64,000 nucleotides of DNA. Source: Phenylobacterium sp. (lineage in GTDB: Bacteria > Pseudomonadota > Alphaproteobacteria > Caulobacterales > Caulobacteraceae). Under the pieces are notes generated by a model, which was not told the DNA's origin, ran no database searches, and worked only from the letters and a program-made list of their open reading frames with translations. Shown here piece by piece: positions 9,139-26,953 of this stretch. Every line of letters begins with the position of its first letter. The stretch's first letter is position 1. The position numbers and the translations under genes are program-made. The DNA lies in the NCBI RefSeq assembly GCF_030651185.1, contig NZ_JAUSCJ010000041.1:93693-157692 (forward strand), in the 5' to 3' direction.

Positions 9139-9495
9139 ATGGCACGCGTTAAAAGGGGCGTTGTCGCCCACGCCCGTCACAAGAAGGTTCTTGAGCAGGC
9201 CAAGGGTTTCTACGGCCGCCGCAAGAACACCATCCGCACGGCCAAGGCTGCGGTCGACCGCGCCGGTCAGTACGCCTATCGCGACCGCAAGGTCCGCAAG
9301 CGTAATTTCCGCTCGCTCTGGATCCAGCGCATCAACGCCGCGGCCCGCATCGAGGGTCTGACCTACGCGACCTTTATCCACGGCCTCGACCTGGCCGGGA
9401 TCGAGATCGACCGCAAGGTCCTGTCGGACATCGCGGGCAACGACCCGGTTGCGTTTAAGGCCATCGCTGAGAAGGTTCGCGCCGCTCTGGCTTGA
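9139..9495 (+). CDS. rplT: 50S ribosomal protein L20
   Basis: [20 protein letters not shown]. Confidence 0.98.
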
Positions 9496-20766: not shown

Positions 20767-20807
20767 GCGCGCCTTCGCGGGCGGCCTGAGGGCGGCTTGC
20801 GACGGCC

Positions 20808-20897
20808 GGTGAGGTGGCGGAGTGGTCGATCGCGCACGCTTGGAAAGCGTGTTTAGGTGAAAGCCTAACGAGGGTTCGAATCCCTCTCTCACCGCCA
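20808..20897 (+). tRNA. tRNA-Ser(GGA)
   Basis: 90 nt; GGTGAGG/TCTCACC acceptor stem, CACGC-TTGGAAA-GCGTG anticodon arm, long variable arm, GTTCGAAT loop, encoded CCA. Confidence 0.97.
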
Positions 20898-21312
20898 AAA
20901 CTTCCGGTCCAACCGGCTCCCAATTTCACAGGTCGTGAAGCCCTCGGAATTCGCGGCGGATTTCCGCAGCTCCGGAGTTTGGCCTCCCACAAAGCCCGAT
21001 TTCAGAGGCGCTCATGAGCGTTTCGGGCCGCGTCTCCACCCGCGAGCGCCCCAGACCTGATCGGGTCGAGGCGGAGAGTCCCGACAATTTAAAGTCGCGA
21101 CCACCAATGCAAAGTTGAATGATAGCTGAAGAGAGGGTGTCTATTTCTGGTACGGTATCAAATACTATTAACTAATATTCCCTCTAGGCGTGTAATTTAT
21201 AGATAATATAGATTTTCGTTTTGAATAACCGAGACTTCTCTTTAGTCCCCTGCCCGACGTATTTGCGTAACGGCCTGCGCGCGGGCCGATTCTACTAAGG
21301 GGCGAATTCACC

Positions 21313-23298
21313 ATGAGCGAACTGATCACCAACGGCGGCTTCAGCACCGGCACATTTGCGGGCTGGACTGCGGGCAGCAACCAAACCAACCCGTATCAGG
21401 CCTCCTTCGGTGGGAGCGGTAATTCTCAGGTCGTCAATTCCACCTCAGGCCAACCGGCCTGGTTCATGCGTAACGTCGCAGGCGGCAGCGCCACTCCGAT
21501 AAGCGGCTACACGGCGTTTAATGGCTTCGACGGCAGCCCGGGTAAGTTCACCCTGAGCCAGACAATTCACATTGATGAGACCGTGTCCTCGGCCATCTTG
21601 AAGTTCGATTTCGCTTCCACCACCAGTTACAGTGGTGCGGCTCGCACCTTTGATGTTGTTCTCACCCAGGGCGGCGTCACAAAGGCCAGCTTCTATCATT
21701 TTGTGGCCCCGTTCGGCGACTCGGCCTGGAGCCCGGTCACGCAGGTGTCGCTGGATATCGGTGCGACCTTGAATTCGCTCAGCGCGGGTGACTACACGCT
21801 GACCTTCGTCGAGGTCATCCCCAGCAACTTCACCGGCCCCGGCGCCTTCGGTCTGGACAATATCTCGCTCAACGCCACCTTCGGCCCCAGCAACGTGGCG
21901 CCCGTCGCCGTCGCCGACGCCTTCGCGGCGACCGAGGATGGCGCGGCGGTGACGCTTAACGTGCTGGCCAACGACACTGACGCCGACGCCGGCGACACCA
22001 AGACCCTGGTCTCGGTCAACACCACGGGCACGACGGGGTCAGCGACCGCCAACGCCGACGGCACGGTGACCTACAATCCGGGCGCCAACTTCCAATCGCT
22101 GAAGGCCGGCGCCACGGCCACCGACACCTTCAGCTACACCCTGAAGGACACCGCGGGCCTGACCAGCACCACGACCGTCACCATGACCGTCACCGGCGTG
22201 AACGACGGTGTCATCGCCGTCGCCGACAGCGGCGCGGCGACCGAGGATGGCGCCGCGGTGACGCTGGACGTCCTGACCAACGACACCGACGTCGATGCGG
22301 GCGACACCAAGACCCTGGTCTCGGTCGACGCCACCGGCGCCCTGGGATCGGTGAGCGCCAACGCCGATGGAACCGTGAGCTACGTCACGGAATCGGCCTT
22401 CCAGAGCCTGAAGGCCGGCGCGACGGCCACCGACACCTTCAGCTATACGGTCCGGGATTCCGCCGGCGCCGAGAGCACGGCCTCGGTGACCATGACGGTC
22501 ACCGGCGTGAACGACGGACCGGTCGCCCTGGCGGACGCGGGGTCGGTTTCCGAAGACCAGTCGGTGATCCTCAACGTTCTGGCCAATGACACCGATATTG
22601 ACACTGGCGACCTGAAGACCCTCGTTTCCGTGTCGGCCACCACCAGCGGCGCCAGTGTCGCCATCGTCGATGGCAAGGTGGTTTACACCGCCGACGCAGA
22701 CACCCAGGACCTGTTGACCGAGGGTCAAACCGCGACTGACAGTTTCACCTATGTGATGGCCGACTCTGCGGGCGCCACCAGCACTGCGACGGTCAGCGTG
22801 ACGGTTGGCGGCGTCGCCAACGGGGCCAATATTCTTGGCACGGTGAAGTCCGATGTTCTGTTGGGCACGGCGGCCGACGAGCGTATCGAGGGCGGCAACG
22901 GCGACGACACCGTCAATGGCTACGACGGGGCCGACAACCTCTTCGGCGGCAACGGCGGCGACCGGCTGTTCGGCGGGGCGGGCATCGACCAGCTCTCCGG
23001 CGAAAATGGCTCCGACACTCTCGACGGTGGGGCCGGCAATGACATCCTGACTGGCGGGAACGGGCCGGACCGTTTCGTCTTCGGCGCCGGCTTCGGCAAC
23101 GATACGATCACCGACTTCAAGGCGCAGAACGACACCATCCAAATCGACCACAACCTGGTGGGCGGCTTCGGCGCCCTGATGAGCCACGCGTCCCAGGTCG
23201 GGAGCTCGGTGGTGATTGCACTCGACGCCGCCCACTCGATCACGCTGCAGGGCGTGAACCTGTCGAGCCTGAGCAGCAGCGACTTCGTCTTCTCCTGA
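21313..23298 (+). CDS. RTX-type secreted adhesin-like protein: N-terminal beta-rich domain, three Ig/cadherin-like repeats, GGxGxDxxx repeats
   Basis: Repeats start at 21892, 22201, 22510 (309-bp period, AxxDxxxxxED...NVLANDTD); about seven Gly/Asp nonapeptides; no Sec signal. Confidence 0.9.
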
Positions 23299-24365: not shown

Positions 24366-24788
24366 CTAGTTGAACTTCGGACCAACCTTTTCGATCTTGT
24401 CGCGCGGGCTGATCAGCACGCAGGTCTGGCCGACCACCCGGTAGGGCCGGACCACGATATTCTGAGCGTAGGTCCCGATCGGTGCGCTGTTGGGATGCTT
24501 GAAGGTCAGCTTGTACGTGCCCTCAGGCAGCTGGAACTTGCGCACGGTTCCGGTGCTGTTCAGAGGGGCGGCCGGAAACATGGTGGCCGGCCCGCTGGGC
24601 TGCTTGCGGAAGGTGTACTCCAGGCCGACGTCGGCGAAGGAGAACAGGTTGAGTTTCACCGTGTAGACGCCCCCGCCGCCGGGGGCGATCTCGCAGATAT
24701 TGGTCGCCGAGGTGACCACCTGGGCGTCGGCGGACCCCGCCAGGGCCAGCCCCGCGGCGGTCGCCGCCATCATCATCCTGAGCCTCAT
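24366..24788 (-). CDS. Secreted hypothetical beta-rich protein (140 aa)
   Basis: ggaga SD; signal peptide ending ADA-Q; one Cys near each end of the mature chain. Confidence 0.8.
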   Translation of the reverse strand: MRLRMMMAATAAGLALAGSADAQVVTSATNICEIAPGGGGVYTVKLNLFSFADVGLEYTFRKQPSGPATMFPAAPLNSTGTVRKFQLPEGTYKLTFKHPNSAPIGTYAQNIVVRPYRVVGQTCVLISPRDKIEKVGPKFN

Positions 24789-25019
24789 GTCGTTTCTCCA
24801 TAGGCGGGCGCGCGGGACTGAATCCCGGCGACCTGGGGGGATGGAAGGAGACACTCCAGCCTGCTGCAACCGGCGCGAGCCCTCTGGCCTGCGACGGCTG
24901 CGAGGGACGCAGACCGTCCGCATCTCACCCCCAGCAGGTCGTTGGAAGCGGCGCCAAGGTTCAATCAGCCAGGGTTGTGCGCGCCTTCGCGGGCGGCCTG
25001 AGGGCGGCTCGCGACGGCG

Positions 25020-25107
25020 GGTGAGGTGGCGGAGTGGTCGATCGCGCACGCTTGGAAAGCGTGTTTAGGTGAAAGCCTAACGAGGGTTCGAATCTCTCTC
25101 ACCGCCC
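25020..25107 (+). pseudogene. Degenerate second copy of tRNA-Ser(GGA)
   Basis: Identical to 20808 onward until the T-arm; 2-nt deletion (aatctctctcacc vs aatccctctctcacc); ends GCCC rather than GCCA; 5' flank 24978-25019 also duplicated. Confidence 0.9.
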
Positions 25108-25210
25108 AAATTCTGCGATAAAACAAGATGTTACGGGCGTCGAAGGGTGATGTCCTTGGCGCATTGGCGGTCATGACGCCGCCTCCGGAACGGAGGCTCG
25201 GACGTCTCTC

Positions 25211-25906
25211 TCAGCGCGGCGCCCGGGGCCTGTGAGAAACGCGCCATGACGCGCGCCACGACACGGGAGACAGCGCCACCCGTCCGGGATCGGCCGCCCG
25301 CGGCCAACTGAGCTGGACTCGGACGACGCCCTCACCGCCAAAACGTCCTGTCAGGAGATCAGGGGCCCAATCACCTTGCTCGGGCCGGCGGGGGGGTGAC
25401 GGCTCGAACAAGCGCTCGCAGGGCAGCATGTCGTCGGGAAATTCCTTGGGCTCGATGTCGCCGGTGGCCAGCCCCGCGAGGAAATCGGTGAGGCCGCAAT
25501 CGAACGCCTCATACTCCCCCATGCCGCGATCCCAGACCACGACGCCCCAGGCGTCGGGTGGGCCGCGCGGGAGCCAAAGAAGATAGTCGCCGAAGTCGGT
25601 CTTCCCGAACGGCAGCAATCCGCCCGGCTCAGGCCACAGGGGATAGGGGCGATCCTCGTCATCCCGGAGGACGTCACAGATCACGCGAACTTCGGATTGC
25701 AGCCTCACATAGGGACTCCAGGACACCGGCACGTGGACTCCCACGAACTCCATAAAGCTGCCGAACCCGTAGAGCCGGACGAAGTCCTTGTAATCCTGGG
25801 GCAGGCCCGTTCCGAGGTCAGCCTCAATCGCTTCCCAAGGTCCGGCATAGGTTTCATCGGGCGCCACCGGCGGCGGGACCACCCTGATCAGGTTTTCAAT
25901 GGTCAC
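25211..25906 (-). CDS. SMI1/KNR4 (SUKH) immunity protein
   Basis: WEAIEADLGTGLPQDYKDFVRLYG, LLPFGKTDFGDYLLW; GTG start with ggagg SD overlapping the toxin stop. Confidence 0.88.
   Translation of the reverse strand: MTIENLIRVVPPPVAPDETYAGPWEAIEADLGTGLPQDYKDFVRLYGFGSFMEFVGVHVPVSWSPYVRLQSEVRVICDVLRDDEDRPYPLWPEPGGLLPFGKTDFGDYLLWLPRGPPDAWGVVVWDRGMGEYEAFDCGLTDFLAGLATGDIEPKEFPDDMLPCERLFEPSPPRRPEQGDWAPDLLTGRFGGEGVVRVQLSWPRAADPGRVALSPVSWRASWRVSHRPRAPR
25331..25344 (+). repeat. Short att-like copy of the tRNA-Ser 3' end
   Basis: ctcaccgccaaaac identical to 20888-20901. Confidence 0.65.
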
Positions 25907-26852
25907 GCTTCCTCCCCGCAGGATTCTCGATGATGCGAGCGATGGGCGCCCCGCGAGAACCAAGCGCAGCGAGCAGAATTCTCGCAGGCGCGAGCACTCC
26001 CGCATTGTACAGCGGCATTGCTGTATACTGGATGATTTCCCCCGCCTTGACCCGCCGCCCCGTCGCGTTCTCGAAGCGCTGCATCAGAGATGAGTTGGTT
26101 GGATTTTGCGTCAATGTGACGAGGTCTAGTGGGCTCCGACCTGAACCTCCAAGTTGCTTTGCTTGGAGGTGTCCCCGCGCTTCATTGTACTTTGTCCCGT
26201 CGCCTTGCCAACCGGGCGGGGTCACCCGCCGGTTGGCCTTCGTCCCAGAGCCGAGAGTGGAGGCTGTTAGAGTCGCAACCAACCCCGTCGCCTGTCCAAG
26301 CGGGGTGGGGCGACCGTGTCTGACCGCAGGCTGTTTGACCAAGGGCGGCGCCAACACTGGTCGTCTGGCCGTCGGCGCAAGAGGGGCGAACCTGGGACGG
26401 GGTGCAGCCCCGAGGAGTGCGGCATCCGCCGCACTTCCGCCTATCAGCGCCCCGTTGCGCGCCTGTGGGGATGCGTTCGCGAGCGTGGCGATCGCATAGG
26501 CGGCGCTCCCGAGCGGGTGGTCCGCCATGAAGAGGGCGCGAGTGACCGCCTGCCTCCGGTCTGCGCGCACGGTGGGCGAGATCGCCGGATCATCAACGTG
26601 CACCAAGACGTCGGCGCGCCCATTGTCGACTCGCCTGTAGGTTCGACCGCCGATCGTGACATAGGGGTTCGGACGAGCGGCTCGATTGAGCAAGGCGAGA
26701 CGCCCATAAGCTGAGGGGAATGATCCCGCAGCTAGAGGCGTCGGCGCGGCTATCGCACTCTGCCCTGCACCACGCTGTCGGACCAATTTGCCATGCGGGT
26801 CACCCAAAGGATTAGGAACGGAACGCGGCTTTCCATTCGGCATCTCCGCCAT
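25896..26852 (-). CDS. Polymorphic-toxin-like protein with C-terminal DNA/RNA non-specific (His-Me) endonuclease
   Basis: PPGWQGDGTKYNEARGHLQAKQLGGSG, LVTLTQNPTNS..M..FE motifs; SUKH gene directly downstream. Confidence 0.85.
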   Translation of the reverse strand: MAEMPNGKPRSVPNPLGDPHGKLVRQRGAGQSAIAAPTPLAAGSFPSAYGRLALLNRAARPNPYVTIGGRTYRRVDNGRADVLVHVDDPAISPTVRADRRQAVTRALFMADHPLGSAAYAIATLANASPQARNGALIGGSAADAALLGAAPRPRFAPLAPTARRPVLAPPLVKQPAVRHGRPTPLGQATGLVATLTASTLGSGTKANRRVTPPGWQGDGTKYNEARGHLQAKQLGGSGRSPLDLVTLTQNPTNSSLMQRFENATGRRVKAGEIIQYTAMPLYNAGVLAPARILLAALGSRGAPIARIIENPAGRKRDH

Positions 26853-26938
26853 TCAACATCTCTTTCGCTCGCGATTTCGCCGGCGCGGCCTTGGCTGCCG
26901 CATCTGGAAAATCTGCCACAAGCTCGCTCTTTTGTCTA

Positions 26939-26953
26939 GAACAAAACAAGAAC
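26939..26953 (-). promoter_or_regulatory. Alphaproteobacterial LexA (SOS) box
   Basis: GTTC-ttgtttt-GTTC on the minus strand, abutting a TAGACA -35-like hexamer (26933-26938), 86 nt before the toxin ATG. Confidence 0.8.

Follow-up and report, generated by a model that had tools for sequence, protein, structure and literature searches.

What does a small nuclease gene do behind a predicted SOS operator and in front of an immunity-like gene in a Phenylobacterium genome, and by what route might its product reach a target? The gene pair lies on the reverse strand of contig NZ_JAUSCJ010000041.1, within a stretch of 64,000 nucleotides (positions 93,693 to 157,692 of the contig) that was analysed as a whole and is called the window below; its source is a groundwater metagenome, and only DNA metagenome runs contain the window sequence. 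An initial annotation, made without database searches, had read the pair as a DNA-damage-inducible module, bacteriocin-like or suicidal, in which a nuclease toxin is translationally coupled to a SUKH immunity gene and no delivery system is visible. The coordinates of all features are collected in Table 1.

Table 1 Features of the toxin–immunity operon, with positions counted from the first nucleotide of the window; aa, amino acids.
Feature	Position	Strand	Description
Predicted LexA operator	26939..26953	(-)	GTTCTTGTTTTGTTC; alphaproteobacterial direct-repeat SOS box, exact match to GTTC-N7-GTTC
-35-like hexamer	26933..26938	(-)	TAGACA, directly adjoining the second half-site; TTGAC in the consensus of the family
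Second conserved promoter block	26910..26922	(-)	CTTGTGGCAGATT; family consensus gtG.gA...tt
Toxin gene	25896..26852	(-)	318 aa: leader, middle domain, Pro-rich linker and PF13930 His-Me nuclease
Leader, aa 1-45	26718..26852	(-)	MAEMPNGKPRSVPNPLGDPHGKLVRQ...; predicted disordered; common to toxins with unrelated C-termini
Middle domain, aa 61-148	26409..26672	(-)	Three strands and three Ala/Gly-rich helices; restricted to the nuclease subfamily
Nuclease domain, about aa 176-313	25914..26327	(-)	Contains RGH (226-228), N253 and E261
Shine-Dalgarno sequence of the immunity gene	25911..25915	(-)	GGAGG, inside the 3' part of the toxin gene; spaced 4 nt from the GTG
SUKH/SMI1_KNR4 immunity gene	25211..25906	(-)	231 aa; GTG start at 25906, stop ends at 25211

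The nuclease motif set that had been noticed by eye at the end of the 318-aa reading frame was confirmed. Residues 186-292 of the toxin match Pfam PF13930, Endonuclea_NS_2 (E=7e-11; 42.9 bits against a cutoff of 27), and R226, H228, L234-G235-G236, N253 and E261 are invariant in 25 of 25 homologues. A profile of the nuclease family searched against the PDB matched the nucleases Sda1, Spd1 and EndA/NucA, with the catalytic residues aligned to the Sda1 core; a Foldseek search with the AF2 model of the toxin, which is of medium confidence (pLDDT 64), returned Spd1, EndA, NucA, Sda1 and EsaD (probability 1.00, E=6e-6 to 2.5e-4). By homology and predicted structure, the C-terminus is a PF13930 His-Me nuclease with the beta-beta-alpha-metal fold. 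Elsewhere this domain forms the tip of giant toxins of the Rhs, Fn3, Hint and T7SS types. Neither the toxin nor the immunity protein matched any NCBIfam or PADLOC model, and the nuclease family was present in none of the viral contigs scanned.

The assignment of the partner to SUKH also held: its product scores above the cutoffs for SUKH_6 (42.2 bits, cutoff 27, E=1.4e-10) and SMI1_KNR4 (39.5 bits, cutoff 25.4, E=1e-9). Translational coupling is borne out by the internal GGAGG and by an 11-nt overlap of the two genes, which covers the last toxin codons and the TGA stop (25898-25896); in most homologues the overlap is ATGA. A SUKH homologue lies directly 3' of the nuclease gene in all 28 related genome loci, which are spread over four phyla and include genes for actinobacterial proteins longer than 1,900 aa and for plasmid-borne Rhs and T7SS toxins. 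The SUKH protein is thus the putative cognate immunity protein of the nuclease. It is cytoplasmic, as would be expected for a bacteriocin and for a suicide module alike.

The perfect box GTTCTTGTTTTGTTC sits 86 nt 5' of the toxin ATG and abuts the -35-like hexamer, exactly at the position first reported. GTTC-N7-GTTC, claimed there as the alphaproteobacterial LexA operator, agrees with the published operator of Caulobacter (PMC12700426, PMC9578287), in which two LexA-box promoters with the box GTTCttgttatGTTC are induced by MMC (PMC12700426; PMC9578287); the box of the window differs from the latter by one spacer base (PMC12700426). As a count the pattern is not significant in the window (2 observed where 1.24 are expected; a count of 2 is reached in 35 of 100 shuffles), and its significance was therefore drawn from conservation across homologues. 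Lack of conservation in homologues had been set beforehand as one finding that would speak against the initial annotation; what was found is clear conservation. Among the 16 homologous genome loci with upstream DNA, a perfect box lies 87-107 nt upstream in 12 and at an estimated 20-42 nt in three more, in which the gene starts are uncertain (15/16 in all); it is the sole invariant block of the intergenic alignment, the surrounding DNA being unalignable. It was also found in 33 of the 39 metagenome loci that bear the leader described below. Altogether, 44 distinct promoter sequences carry the box, with the consensus GTTC-N7-GTTCTTgac, and across them its position relative to the -35 is fixed and spacer and flanks vary.

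The second promoter block, in which T141, T143, G144 and A147 are invariant (alignment A3), is probably the -10 or extended -10 region. A simple sigma-70 consensus scan did not flag a promoter at the box and this block, which was not counted against the assignment, as promoters of the Caulobacter type deviate from the E. coli consensus. None of the canonical SOS genes (recA, lexA etc.) lies within the loci examined. From the operator and its conservation, we infer a LexA-repressed, DNA-damage-inducible toxin–immunity operon.

How the toxin would leave or enter a cell may depend on its N-terminal half (aa 1-175), which had been described as free of a signal peptide and of any recognised Rhs, CDI or T6SS marker. 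Pfam and a check for signal-like stretches agree: no hydrophobic stretch of this kind is present, and there were 0 matches in Pfam, NCBIfam, PADLOC and PHROG (the PHROG search overall gave two weak matches only, both to families of unknown function). The N-terminal model found no fold match in the PDB (Foldseek, best E=1.7), so that no recognised trafficking or secretion domain was found by Pfam, NCBIfam, PHROG or fold search; nor was a receptor-binding domain, a TonB box or a TolB box recognised in the toxin, the boxes being judged by eye. In the AF2 model, residues 1-60 have a pLDDT below 50 and the middle domain has values of 70-92; the leader is accordingly predicted to be disordered.

The first 25-45 residues or so form a conserved leader, MAxMPRGEPRSVPDPAGExYDxM. 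In 50 distinct sequences its amino acids are conserved and its synonymous codons saturated, all being in use, and by this comparison the leader is under strong purifying selection. Proteins that share it were identified by an exhaustive search of representative proteins, in which only 103 of 1.84 billion matched the N-terminal profile; a word-indexed protein search with the leader profile gave only fragments of 25-79 aa. In a 3,623-aa protein the single match to the N-terminus covers just one short beta-hairpin. As PxxxxDPxG in the leader resembles the Rhs end-of-core motif, an Rhs origin was considered. It was dropped because, in the actinobacterial Rhs, Fn3 and Hint proteins that carry this nuclease, the region preceding the toxin shows no homology to the N-terminus found here. 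The initial annotation had suggested looking for the same N-terminus with other toxin tips behind a conserved upstream box. Such proteins were found, but the shared part comprises the first 25-45 residues only: the middle domain of about 90 aa is confined to the nuclease type, in two proteins (P0084 and P0096) it is joined to the nuclease behind another N-terminus, and the leader alone reaches other toxin types. The leader is probably used for export or uptake.

The leader precedes unrelated C-termini, namely the nuclease, an HNH-like type, a glycine-zipper type and two unknown types. Every leader-bearing toxin type lies behind the same box and promoter and is followed by a conserved gene of its own, and the partner varies with the toxin: SUKH, a family of 150-172 aa, a membrane protein (paired with the glycine-zipper type) or lipoproteins. 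A shared N-terminal region with alternative C-termini, together with an immunity gene that changes with the type, marks polymorphic toxins, and both were found here. On this comparative evidence, the pair is assigned to a family of predicted damage-switched toxins that share a short N-terminal tag and had not been described before. The HNH-like leader family comprises at least 398 proteins; among those listed, all with a source name are annotated 'hypothetical protein'. PDB matches of the HNH-like type to Kelch/SAKe proteins contained no significant stretch and were treated as compositional. The sister types gave 0 matches to the PADLOC models of anti-phage defence.

Two of the sister types (P0146/P0151 and P0150) have toxins without Sec or Tat signals, and the product of the adjoining gene has a lipobox signal peptide. 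Lipoprotein immunity proteins point to toxins that act from outside the cell and would not be pure suicide modules. This argument from exported immunity rests on the sister toxin types and not on the nuclease type.

The module has a GC content of 0.60-0.64, against about 0.69 in its flanks. In several genomes the cassette occupies a conserved chromosomal site adjoining tRNA-Ser, a position compatible both with a housekeeping-like role and with an island. The interval from the SUKH stop to tRNA-Ser is empty and holds no lysis or release gene, and no secretion-system genes were found in the window or, in complete or large contigs, within 10 kb. The absence of nearby secretion genes is usual for S-type pyocin-like bacteriocins.

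Our preferred reading, to which we give a probability of about 0.58, is a LexA-repressed toxin–immunity operon that most likely encodes a colicin- or S-pyocin-like bacteriocin and belongs to a Caulobacterales-specific polymorphic toxin family. In the undamaged cell, LexA on the GTTC-N7-GTTC box abutting the -35 would block RNA polymerase; after DNA damage, activated RecA would cause LexA to cleave itself, and the operon would be transcribed. The overlapping layout of the genes indicates that nuclease and SUKH are translated in a coupled manner, so that the producer would make an inactive complex. The toxin would then leave and enter related cells by a route dependent on the conserved disordered leader. 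It would probably be released when a damaged subpopulation lyses, perhaps with the aid of a P22-like element under the same control. In a recipient without the cognate SUKH protein, the nuclease, like other non-specific His-Me nucleases, would degrade nucleic acid.

A bacteriocin-like role is favoured over an intracellular SOS-triggered suicide or growth-arrest module, of the BapE or toxin–antitoxin type, because sister cassettes that share its leader and promoter encode lipoproteins as immunity proteins. After severe damage, a suicide nuclease would outlast or outnumber its SUKH inhibitor and fragment the chromosome of the cell that made it; the leader would then serve as a degron or regulatory handle and not as a transport signal. 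Caulobacter offers precedents in BapE, an SOS-controlled endonuclease that kills the damaged cell, and in a LexA-controlled HigBA module; co-expression of toxin and inhibitor from one promoter and the joint absence of an export signal, a lysis gene and a nearby secretion system would also suit this role. Lipoprotein or membrane immunity in the sister cassettes, however, would be pointless if the toxin remained cytoplasmic; the nuclease–SUKH unit otherwise tips secreted toxins of the Rhs and T7SS types; and a constant N-terminus with swapped toxin–immunity pairs is a hallmark of interbacterial toxins. The lack of PADLOC matches and a genome scan with the nuclease motifs, which returned 0 Caulobacter loci, argue in the same direction. 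We consider a suicide module possible, though not likely.

The initial annotation had conjectured an undescribed route such as lysis or packaging by a phage or a GTA, and a phage or GTA may be the vehicle. The second alternative starts from the P22-like element, which is a lead for toxin release or delivery. In four loci (L076, L049, L058 and L161) the leader gene is immediately followed by a P22-like portal gene (PF16510, E=5e-197); in others (L030-33 and L074/75) it adjoins the remnant of a portal gene or a large terminase gene. The element includes scaffold and P22 coat genes and has 147 same-strand LexA boxes in 740 kb, about one-third of which share the box-TTGAC promoter and a 5'UTR motif with the toxin cassettes. 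No separate box lies between cassette and portal gene in L161 and L076, and the two may therefore be co-transcribed there. These observations would suit a toxin carried as cargo of an SOS-induced phage-derived particle, in which the leader directs diverse toxins to the capsid or portal for loading and the P22-like particle injects them into neighbours. Against this, only 2 of 80 portal-bearing viral contigs have a leader gene, and most leader cassettes, that of the window included, stand alone, with no portal gene within 4-10 kb or within the 64 kb. Portal adjacency may merely mark a hotspot for moron insertion, and neither tail genes nor lysis genes were identified. Particle cargo appears unlikely on balance. 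The broader proposal that the leader is a new targeting signal tying the SOS-induced toxin family to an SOS-box-controlled P22-derived particle, by portal or capsid packaging or by release through lysis, is similarly doubtful; such LexA-triggered, phage-derived delivery in Caulobacterales would be distinct from tailocins, eCIS, GTAs and MuF toxins.

It is highly improbable that the toxin is an effector of a known secretion system (T6SS, T7SS, CDI, T1SS or T4SS) encoded elsewhere in the genome. Such systems employ the nuclease–SUKH unit in other phyla, and an orphan effector gene can sit far from its apparatus; yet Pfam shows no PAAR, MIX, LXG, VENN, Rhs or RTX marker in the toxin, apparatus genes are absent from the window and from the 10 kb around the cassette in other genomes, and the N-terminal profile is confined to its small family among the representative proteins. 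A chance box in front of a pair without DNA-damage regulation, compatible as it is with a pattern no commoner in the window than expected, is contradicted by the comparative data from the 44 promoters and can be given hardly any credence.

If the bacteriocin-like reading is correct, the SOS regulon of Caulobacterales gains hundreds of toxin–immunity cassettes, the HNH-like type alone contributing those of at least 398 proteins. It would also define a short and transferable N-terminal signal, whose partner, whether exporter, importer or phage particle, could be fished for directly; two toxin families and several immunity families, all uncharacterised, would be supplied as well, besides a putative HNH-like toxin family. 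In enterobacteria and Pseudomonas, bacteriocins under SOS control are textbook knowledge. The literature searched contained no alphaproteobacterial equivalent with a direct-repeat LexA operator and no description of the leader.

Among the closest known systems are MuF-type phage-borne polymorphic toxins and the internal proteins of T4 with their capsid-targeting sequence. By analogy, the leader could steer diverse toxins into a phage head, and some cassettes abut a portal gene; unlike MuF toxins, however, the family has no MuF domain, its association with portal genes is only occasional, and packaging is hypothetical.

With the nuclease colicins (E2/E7/E9) and the S-type pyocins, the operon shares the order of a nuclease gene followed by a coupled immunity gene, SOS control (predicted here from the operator), an N-terminus that is disordered (by prediction here) and bears a short conserved motif, and a C-terminal cytotoxic domain; like S pyocins, it is chromosomally encoded and is adjoined by no dedicated secretion machinery or lysis gene. 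It differs in its nuclease, which is of the EndA/Sda1/EsaD (PF13930) type and not the HNH type of colicin DNases; in its immunity protein, which is SUKH and not Im/ImmE; in its operator, which is the alphaproteobacterial direct repeat to which LexA itself binds and not a P-box/PrtN circuit; and in its size of only 318 aa, with no recognised receptor-binding domain or TonB/TolB box.

Fold, immunity superfamily and gene order are those of the Endonuclea_NS_2/SUKH polymorphic toxins (Rhs; T7SS EssD/EsaD-EsaG and YeeF/YezG), and a constant N-terminus with variable toxin tips is common to polymorphic systems of the Rhs and T7SS types (PMC5714182). In contrast to those toxins, the constant part here is a leader of 25-45 aa with a LexA-box promoter, in place of a large Rhs, LXG, PAAR or filamentous haemagglutinin trafficking domain, and the leader-family proteins have only 200-320 aa.

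BapE of Caulobacter crescentus, the SOS- and DriD-controlled 'apoptosis' endonuclease, comes from the same bacterial family and is likewise an endonuclease behind GTTC-N7-GTTC; its box is GTTCgcgttatGTTC, and it is induced late after mitomycin C. BapE was compared by its description and promoter only, the literature searched giving no description of its domains. It differs from the window operon in that it is described as acting on the producer's own chromosome, in that the literature found mentions no immunity partner, and in that the bapE promoter is without the box-TTGAC architecture; an exact scan of the metagenome contigs for the published bapE promoter gave 0 matches. The present family bears on 'bacterial apoptosis' of the BapE type, since damage-induced nucleases of this clade may be weapons released from dying cells, instead of or besides suicide devices.

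The gene pair was found as the initial annotation had described it, a His-Me nuclease gene coupled to an SMI1/KNR4 (SUKH) gene, with an upstream GTTC-N7-GTTC box, spacing and flush TAGACA included; the description is thus accurate, since ORF, Pfam match, overlap and box positions were all confirmed in the window. PF13930 (Endonuclea_NS_2; aa 186–292, E = 7e-11, above threshold) is the sole Pfam match of the toxin; the immunity gene has GGAGG 4 nt upstream of its start and, as read from the sequence, overlaps the toxin gene end by 11 nt. Adjoining genes share the orientation of the pair, and none is secretion-related (upstream, by Pfam: a TPR protein, a 164-aa protein and a response regulator); downstream, a convergent tRNA-Ser(GGA) gene lies 100 nt past the SUKH stop. 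The window derives from a groundwater metagenome. Regulation, toxicity, immunity and transport are all deduced from sequence and comparative genomics.

Coordinates of features in the window and in related loci (window numbering, unless a locus or the toxin is named)
Feature	Position	Strand	Details
Toxin ORF	26852→25896	-	318 aa; ORF reading
SUKH_6/SMI1_KNR4 immunity gene	GTG 25906, to 25211	-	231 aa; Pfam match
Box	26953→26939	-	GTTCTTGTTTTGTTC; 86 nt before toxin ATG; TAGACA directly after
Second window box	24547–24561	+	GTTCCGGTGCTGTTC; GC-rich spacer, within overlapping ORFs
tRNA-Ser(GGA), two copies	20808–20897; 25019–25108	+	
GC down to 0.52–0.56	20800–21600		
ARAGORN "tRNA-Phe" calls	9315–9406; 23110–23201	-	92 nt each
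Disordered region	toxin aa 1–60		AF2
Middle domain	toxin aa 61–148		AF2, pLDDT 70–92; three strands and three Ala/Gly-rich helices
Disordered Pro-rich linker	toxin aa 149–173		AF2; nuclease domain next
Leader genes, same type	L035, 384–1190 and 2322–2732		
Leader-only ORF	L030–L033, 5001–5123		
Second box, HNH-like cassettes	L050 3488; L063 2064; L069 1397; L075 4741; L158 10736		
VgrG3-C-like and LprI-type genes	L161, 1349–2927		just upstream of the cassette
Xre/MbcA-ParS and RES-domain pair	L076, 261–1402		immediately ahead of box, leader ORF and portal

The two tRNA-Ser copies are identical across the gene and about 45 nt upstream, and the toxin-adjacent copy lacks 2 nt of the T-arm region. 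They enclose 4.1 kb that encode a 661-aa cadherin-like/Big_9/RTX protein and two small ORFs with no Pfam match; the arrangement looks like the result of an insertion by which the tRNA gene was duplicated. In homologous loci L001, L002 and L003, too, the toxin pair stands beside tRNA-Ser, and in L007 such a gene lies about 2 kb away. The metagenome-assembled genome E19_concoct.bin.37_sub (L001 and L003) carries two nuclease–SUKH cassettes, located on different contigs and each with ~68% identity to the window toxin; the two adjoin tRNA-Ser and share upstream neighbours with the window, and this bin may be a mixture of two strains. The SUKH protein has 231 aa in the window and L001/L002, most homologues ending at about 170–186 aa, and conservation of its Arg/Pro-rich C-terminal extension is confined to this clade. 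Of the two ARAGORN calls, one has the anticodon aaa and the other falls within the RTX gene; both appear to be false positives.

Control of the pair by LexA is very likely (probability roughly 0.85), judging from the promoter DNA of its relatives. Full-length toxin homologues (about 316 aa) number 55 in a search of 5.8 billion proteins, all named ones from Phenylobacterium; when one genome per species was scanned, the yield was 18 toxin-family loci (Phenylobacterium, Caulobacterales or unclassified Alphaproteobacteria only) and 10 further distant loci with a match limited to the nuclease. Conservation of the box, on which the initial annotation had made its proposal depend, is borne out: a perfect GTTC-N7-GTTC is present in 15 of the 16 family loci with upstream DNA, 87–107 nt ahead of the start in the 12 whose start codon is clear, and when 12 upstream regions are aligned a TGTTC-N7-GTTCT block is invariant amid unalignable flanking DNA, followed about 20 nt downstream by a second short block, cTTGTG..A. 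The consensus of 44 distinct promoters is aT-GTTC-ttnTTTT-GTTC-TTgac, ~15 nt, gtG.gA...tt, with the operator fused to the -35 element. The Caulobacter LexA operator is GTTC-N7-GTTC, and two MMC-induced Caulobacter LexA-box promoters carry GTTCttgttatGTTC, one spacer base different from the window box (PMC12700426, PMC9578287); the bapE promoter box is GTTCgcgttatGTTC (PMC12700426). Within the window the box is not enriched (2 matches vs 1.24 expected), and the second match looks like a chance one.

Residues R226, H228, L234-G235-G236, N253 and E261 are invariant in 25 toxin homologues. The family profile matches the PDB streptococcal nucleases Sda1, Spd1 and EndA/NucA, which the AF2 toxin model (medium confidence, pLDDT 64) also resembles, together with the T7SS toxin EsaD. 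A SUKH homologue lies directly downstream of the nuclease in 28/28 loci, among them one Faecalibacterium locus, one Bacteroidetes locus and actinobacterial proteins of 1,900 to >2,100 aa whose upstream parts are Fn3, Hint or YD/Rhs-like; the same nuclease sits at the tip of plasmid-borne proteins with the annotations RHS, DUF6531, DUF4781 or T7SS-secreted. This pairing, and the use as tip of giant and plasmid-borne toxins, identify the nuclease–SUKH unit as a predicted standard polymorphic-toxin cassette, the peculiar part here being the region in front.

In that region, a PDB search gave no fold relative for the middle domain. A profile of aa 1–150 gave only 103 matches in an exhaustive search of 1.84 billion representative proteins, among which the full N-terminus is confined to ~300-aa nuclease proteins; P0084 and P0096 combine middle domain and nuclease with a different N-terminus, and about a dozen matches cover the first 35–50 residues only, followed by unrelated sequence. 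The idea that the same N-terminus and box would precede other toxin tips holds for this leader (the first ~25–45 residues), but not for the full N-terminus, which is nuclease-only. The leader consensus is MAxMPRGEPRSVPDPAGExYDxMxR. It is conserved as peptide, not DNA: in 50 distinct sequences Pro sites use four codons, one Arg site six, and Ser both TCN and AGC, so that neither recombination nor an RNA-level effect can by itself account for the conservation. An N-terminal, disordered, strongly conserved piece of 25–45 aa would fit a linear motif for export or uptake, comparable to the disordered translocation domains of colicins and pyocins; no Tol or Ton box was recognised in the leader.

A leader scan of metagenome contigs gave 39 loci, 33 of which have a perfect box no more than 300 nt upstream, and of the remaining six, two have <90 nt of upstream sequence; exact protein look-up gave four further leader loci with a box. 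Toxin types and partners are: type 1, PF13930 nuclease with SUKH; type 2, HNH-like (invariant HH...N...H.R) with a conserved 150–172 aa protein downstream, usually in ATGA overlap; type 3, glycine-zipper toxin with a membrane protein next downstream; type 4, P0146/P0151, whose partners have lipoprotein signal peptides (lipoboxes LSGC, LFGC) and clearly similar sequences; type 5, P0150, with a partner of lipobox LAAC. The uncharacterised HNH-like family (alignment A7; L037–L075, P0168–P0287) comprises at least 398 proteins of about 220–240 aa without Pfam match, the HNH likeness being judged by eye; among the matches listed, all those with a source name are "hypothetical protein", and the organisms are mostly Phenylobacterium. 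Its uncharacterised immunity family has the motif FPVLGF..D..WGFPD...LT.CGP.TL. A second GTTC-N7-GTTC, frequently GTTCCyGTTTCGTTC, is found in HNH-like cassettes 8–21 nt ahead of the immunity-gene start codon. On the 2.7-kb contig L035 only the second leader gene has a box, and the first is followed by a lipoprotein gene and another small ORF. Leader-only short ORFs of 25–79 aa are numerous (also P0152–P0167), one of 40 aa with an intact immunity-type gene next; such ORFs are probably all that is left of former toxin genes whose immunity genes became orphans.

The layout, with an operator on the -35, a toxin, a coupled immunity gene and nothing else, is most likely that of a damage-induced bacteriocin: DNA damage would switch on both genes and the toxin would act on other cells. 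The strongest competing explanation is a BapE-like suicide or toxin-antitoxin module that acts inside the producing cell; the cytoplasmic SUKH partner is equally compatible with it, so that for the nuclease type the argument is indirect. Toxins without Sec/Tat signal that are paired with periplasmic lipoprotein immunity, however, must enter the periplasm from outside; the nuclease–SUKH unit serves secreted toxins elsewhere, and a constant N-terminal piece with exchanged toxin-immunity pairs is a signature of interbacterial conflict. The bacteriocin reading is accordingly favoured on comparative grounds. No secretion-system genes were found in the window, nor ≤10 kb from cassettes in one complete genome and a 1.2-Mb contig.

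A P22-like element may have a part in release or delivery of leader toxins, since in several independent loci the cassette immediately precedes a portal gene of P22 type (PF16510, E = 5e-197): box, 72-aa leader ORF, portal (L076); box, leader gene, box, portal (L049, L058); box, leader toxin, lipoprotein immunity gene, portal (L161). In L030–33 and L074/75 the cassette stands beside a portal remnant or large terminase. This widespread head-gene element includes large terminase and, beyond the portal, scaffold and P22-type coat genes; 164 portal relatives are in IMG/VR, mostly on 10–30 kb contigs, and the closest cultured phage has <50% identity. Its loci (L076/L077, IMG/VR contigs L078–L157, L049, L058, L161) hold, ahead of its genes, 147 same-strand boxes in 740 kb vs ~6 estimated by chance, about a third with the shared box-TTGAC architecture and some with the toxin-cassette 5'UTR motif. 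Against a tight link, the leader gene is on only 2/80 portal loci, and most cassettes, the window's included, stand alone. The element may be a lysis supplier, a delivery particle or a mere insertion hotspot; that the toxins are cargo of such a particle is unlikely. Its structural genes are apparently under direct LexA control, which would be unusual for a phage, and it may represent an SOS-inducible particle of Caulobacterales that is domesticated or defective. In L161 a 219-aa T6SS_VgrG3-like_C protein (putative peptidoglycan hydrolase) and two divergent LprI-type lysozyme-inhibitor-like genes look like a second, leaderless toxin-immunity set; L076 has an Xre/MbcA-ParS antitoxin and RES-domain toxin pair.

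No paper was found on the leader or on an SOS-controlled polymorphic toxin family in alphaproteobacteria, which is weak evidence of absence because literature coverage was incomplete. Among known systems, nuclease colicins and S-type pyocins are functionally closest, the cassette differing in nuclease type, immunity type and operator. Within the same bacterial family, BapE comes nearest as a precedent. In its components the cassette most resembles Endonuclea_NS_2/SUKH polymorphic toxins, whose large trafficking domain is replaced here by a 25–45 aa leader and a LexA-box promoter.
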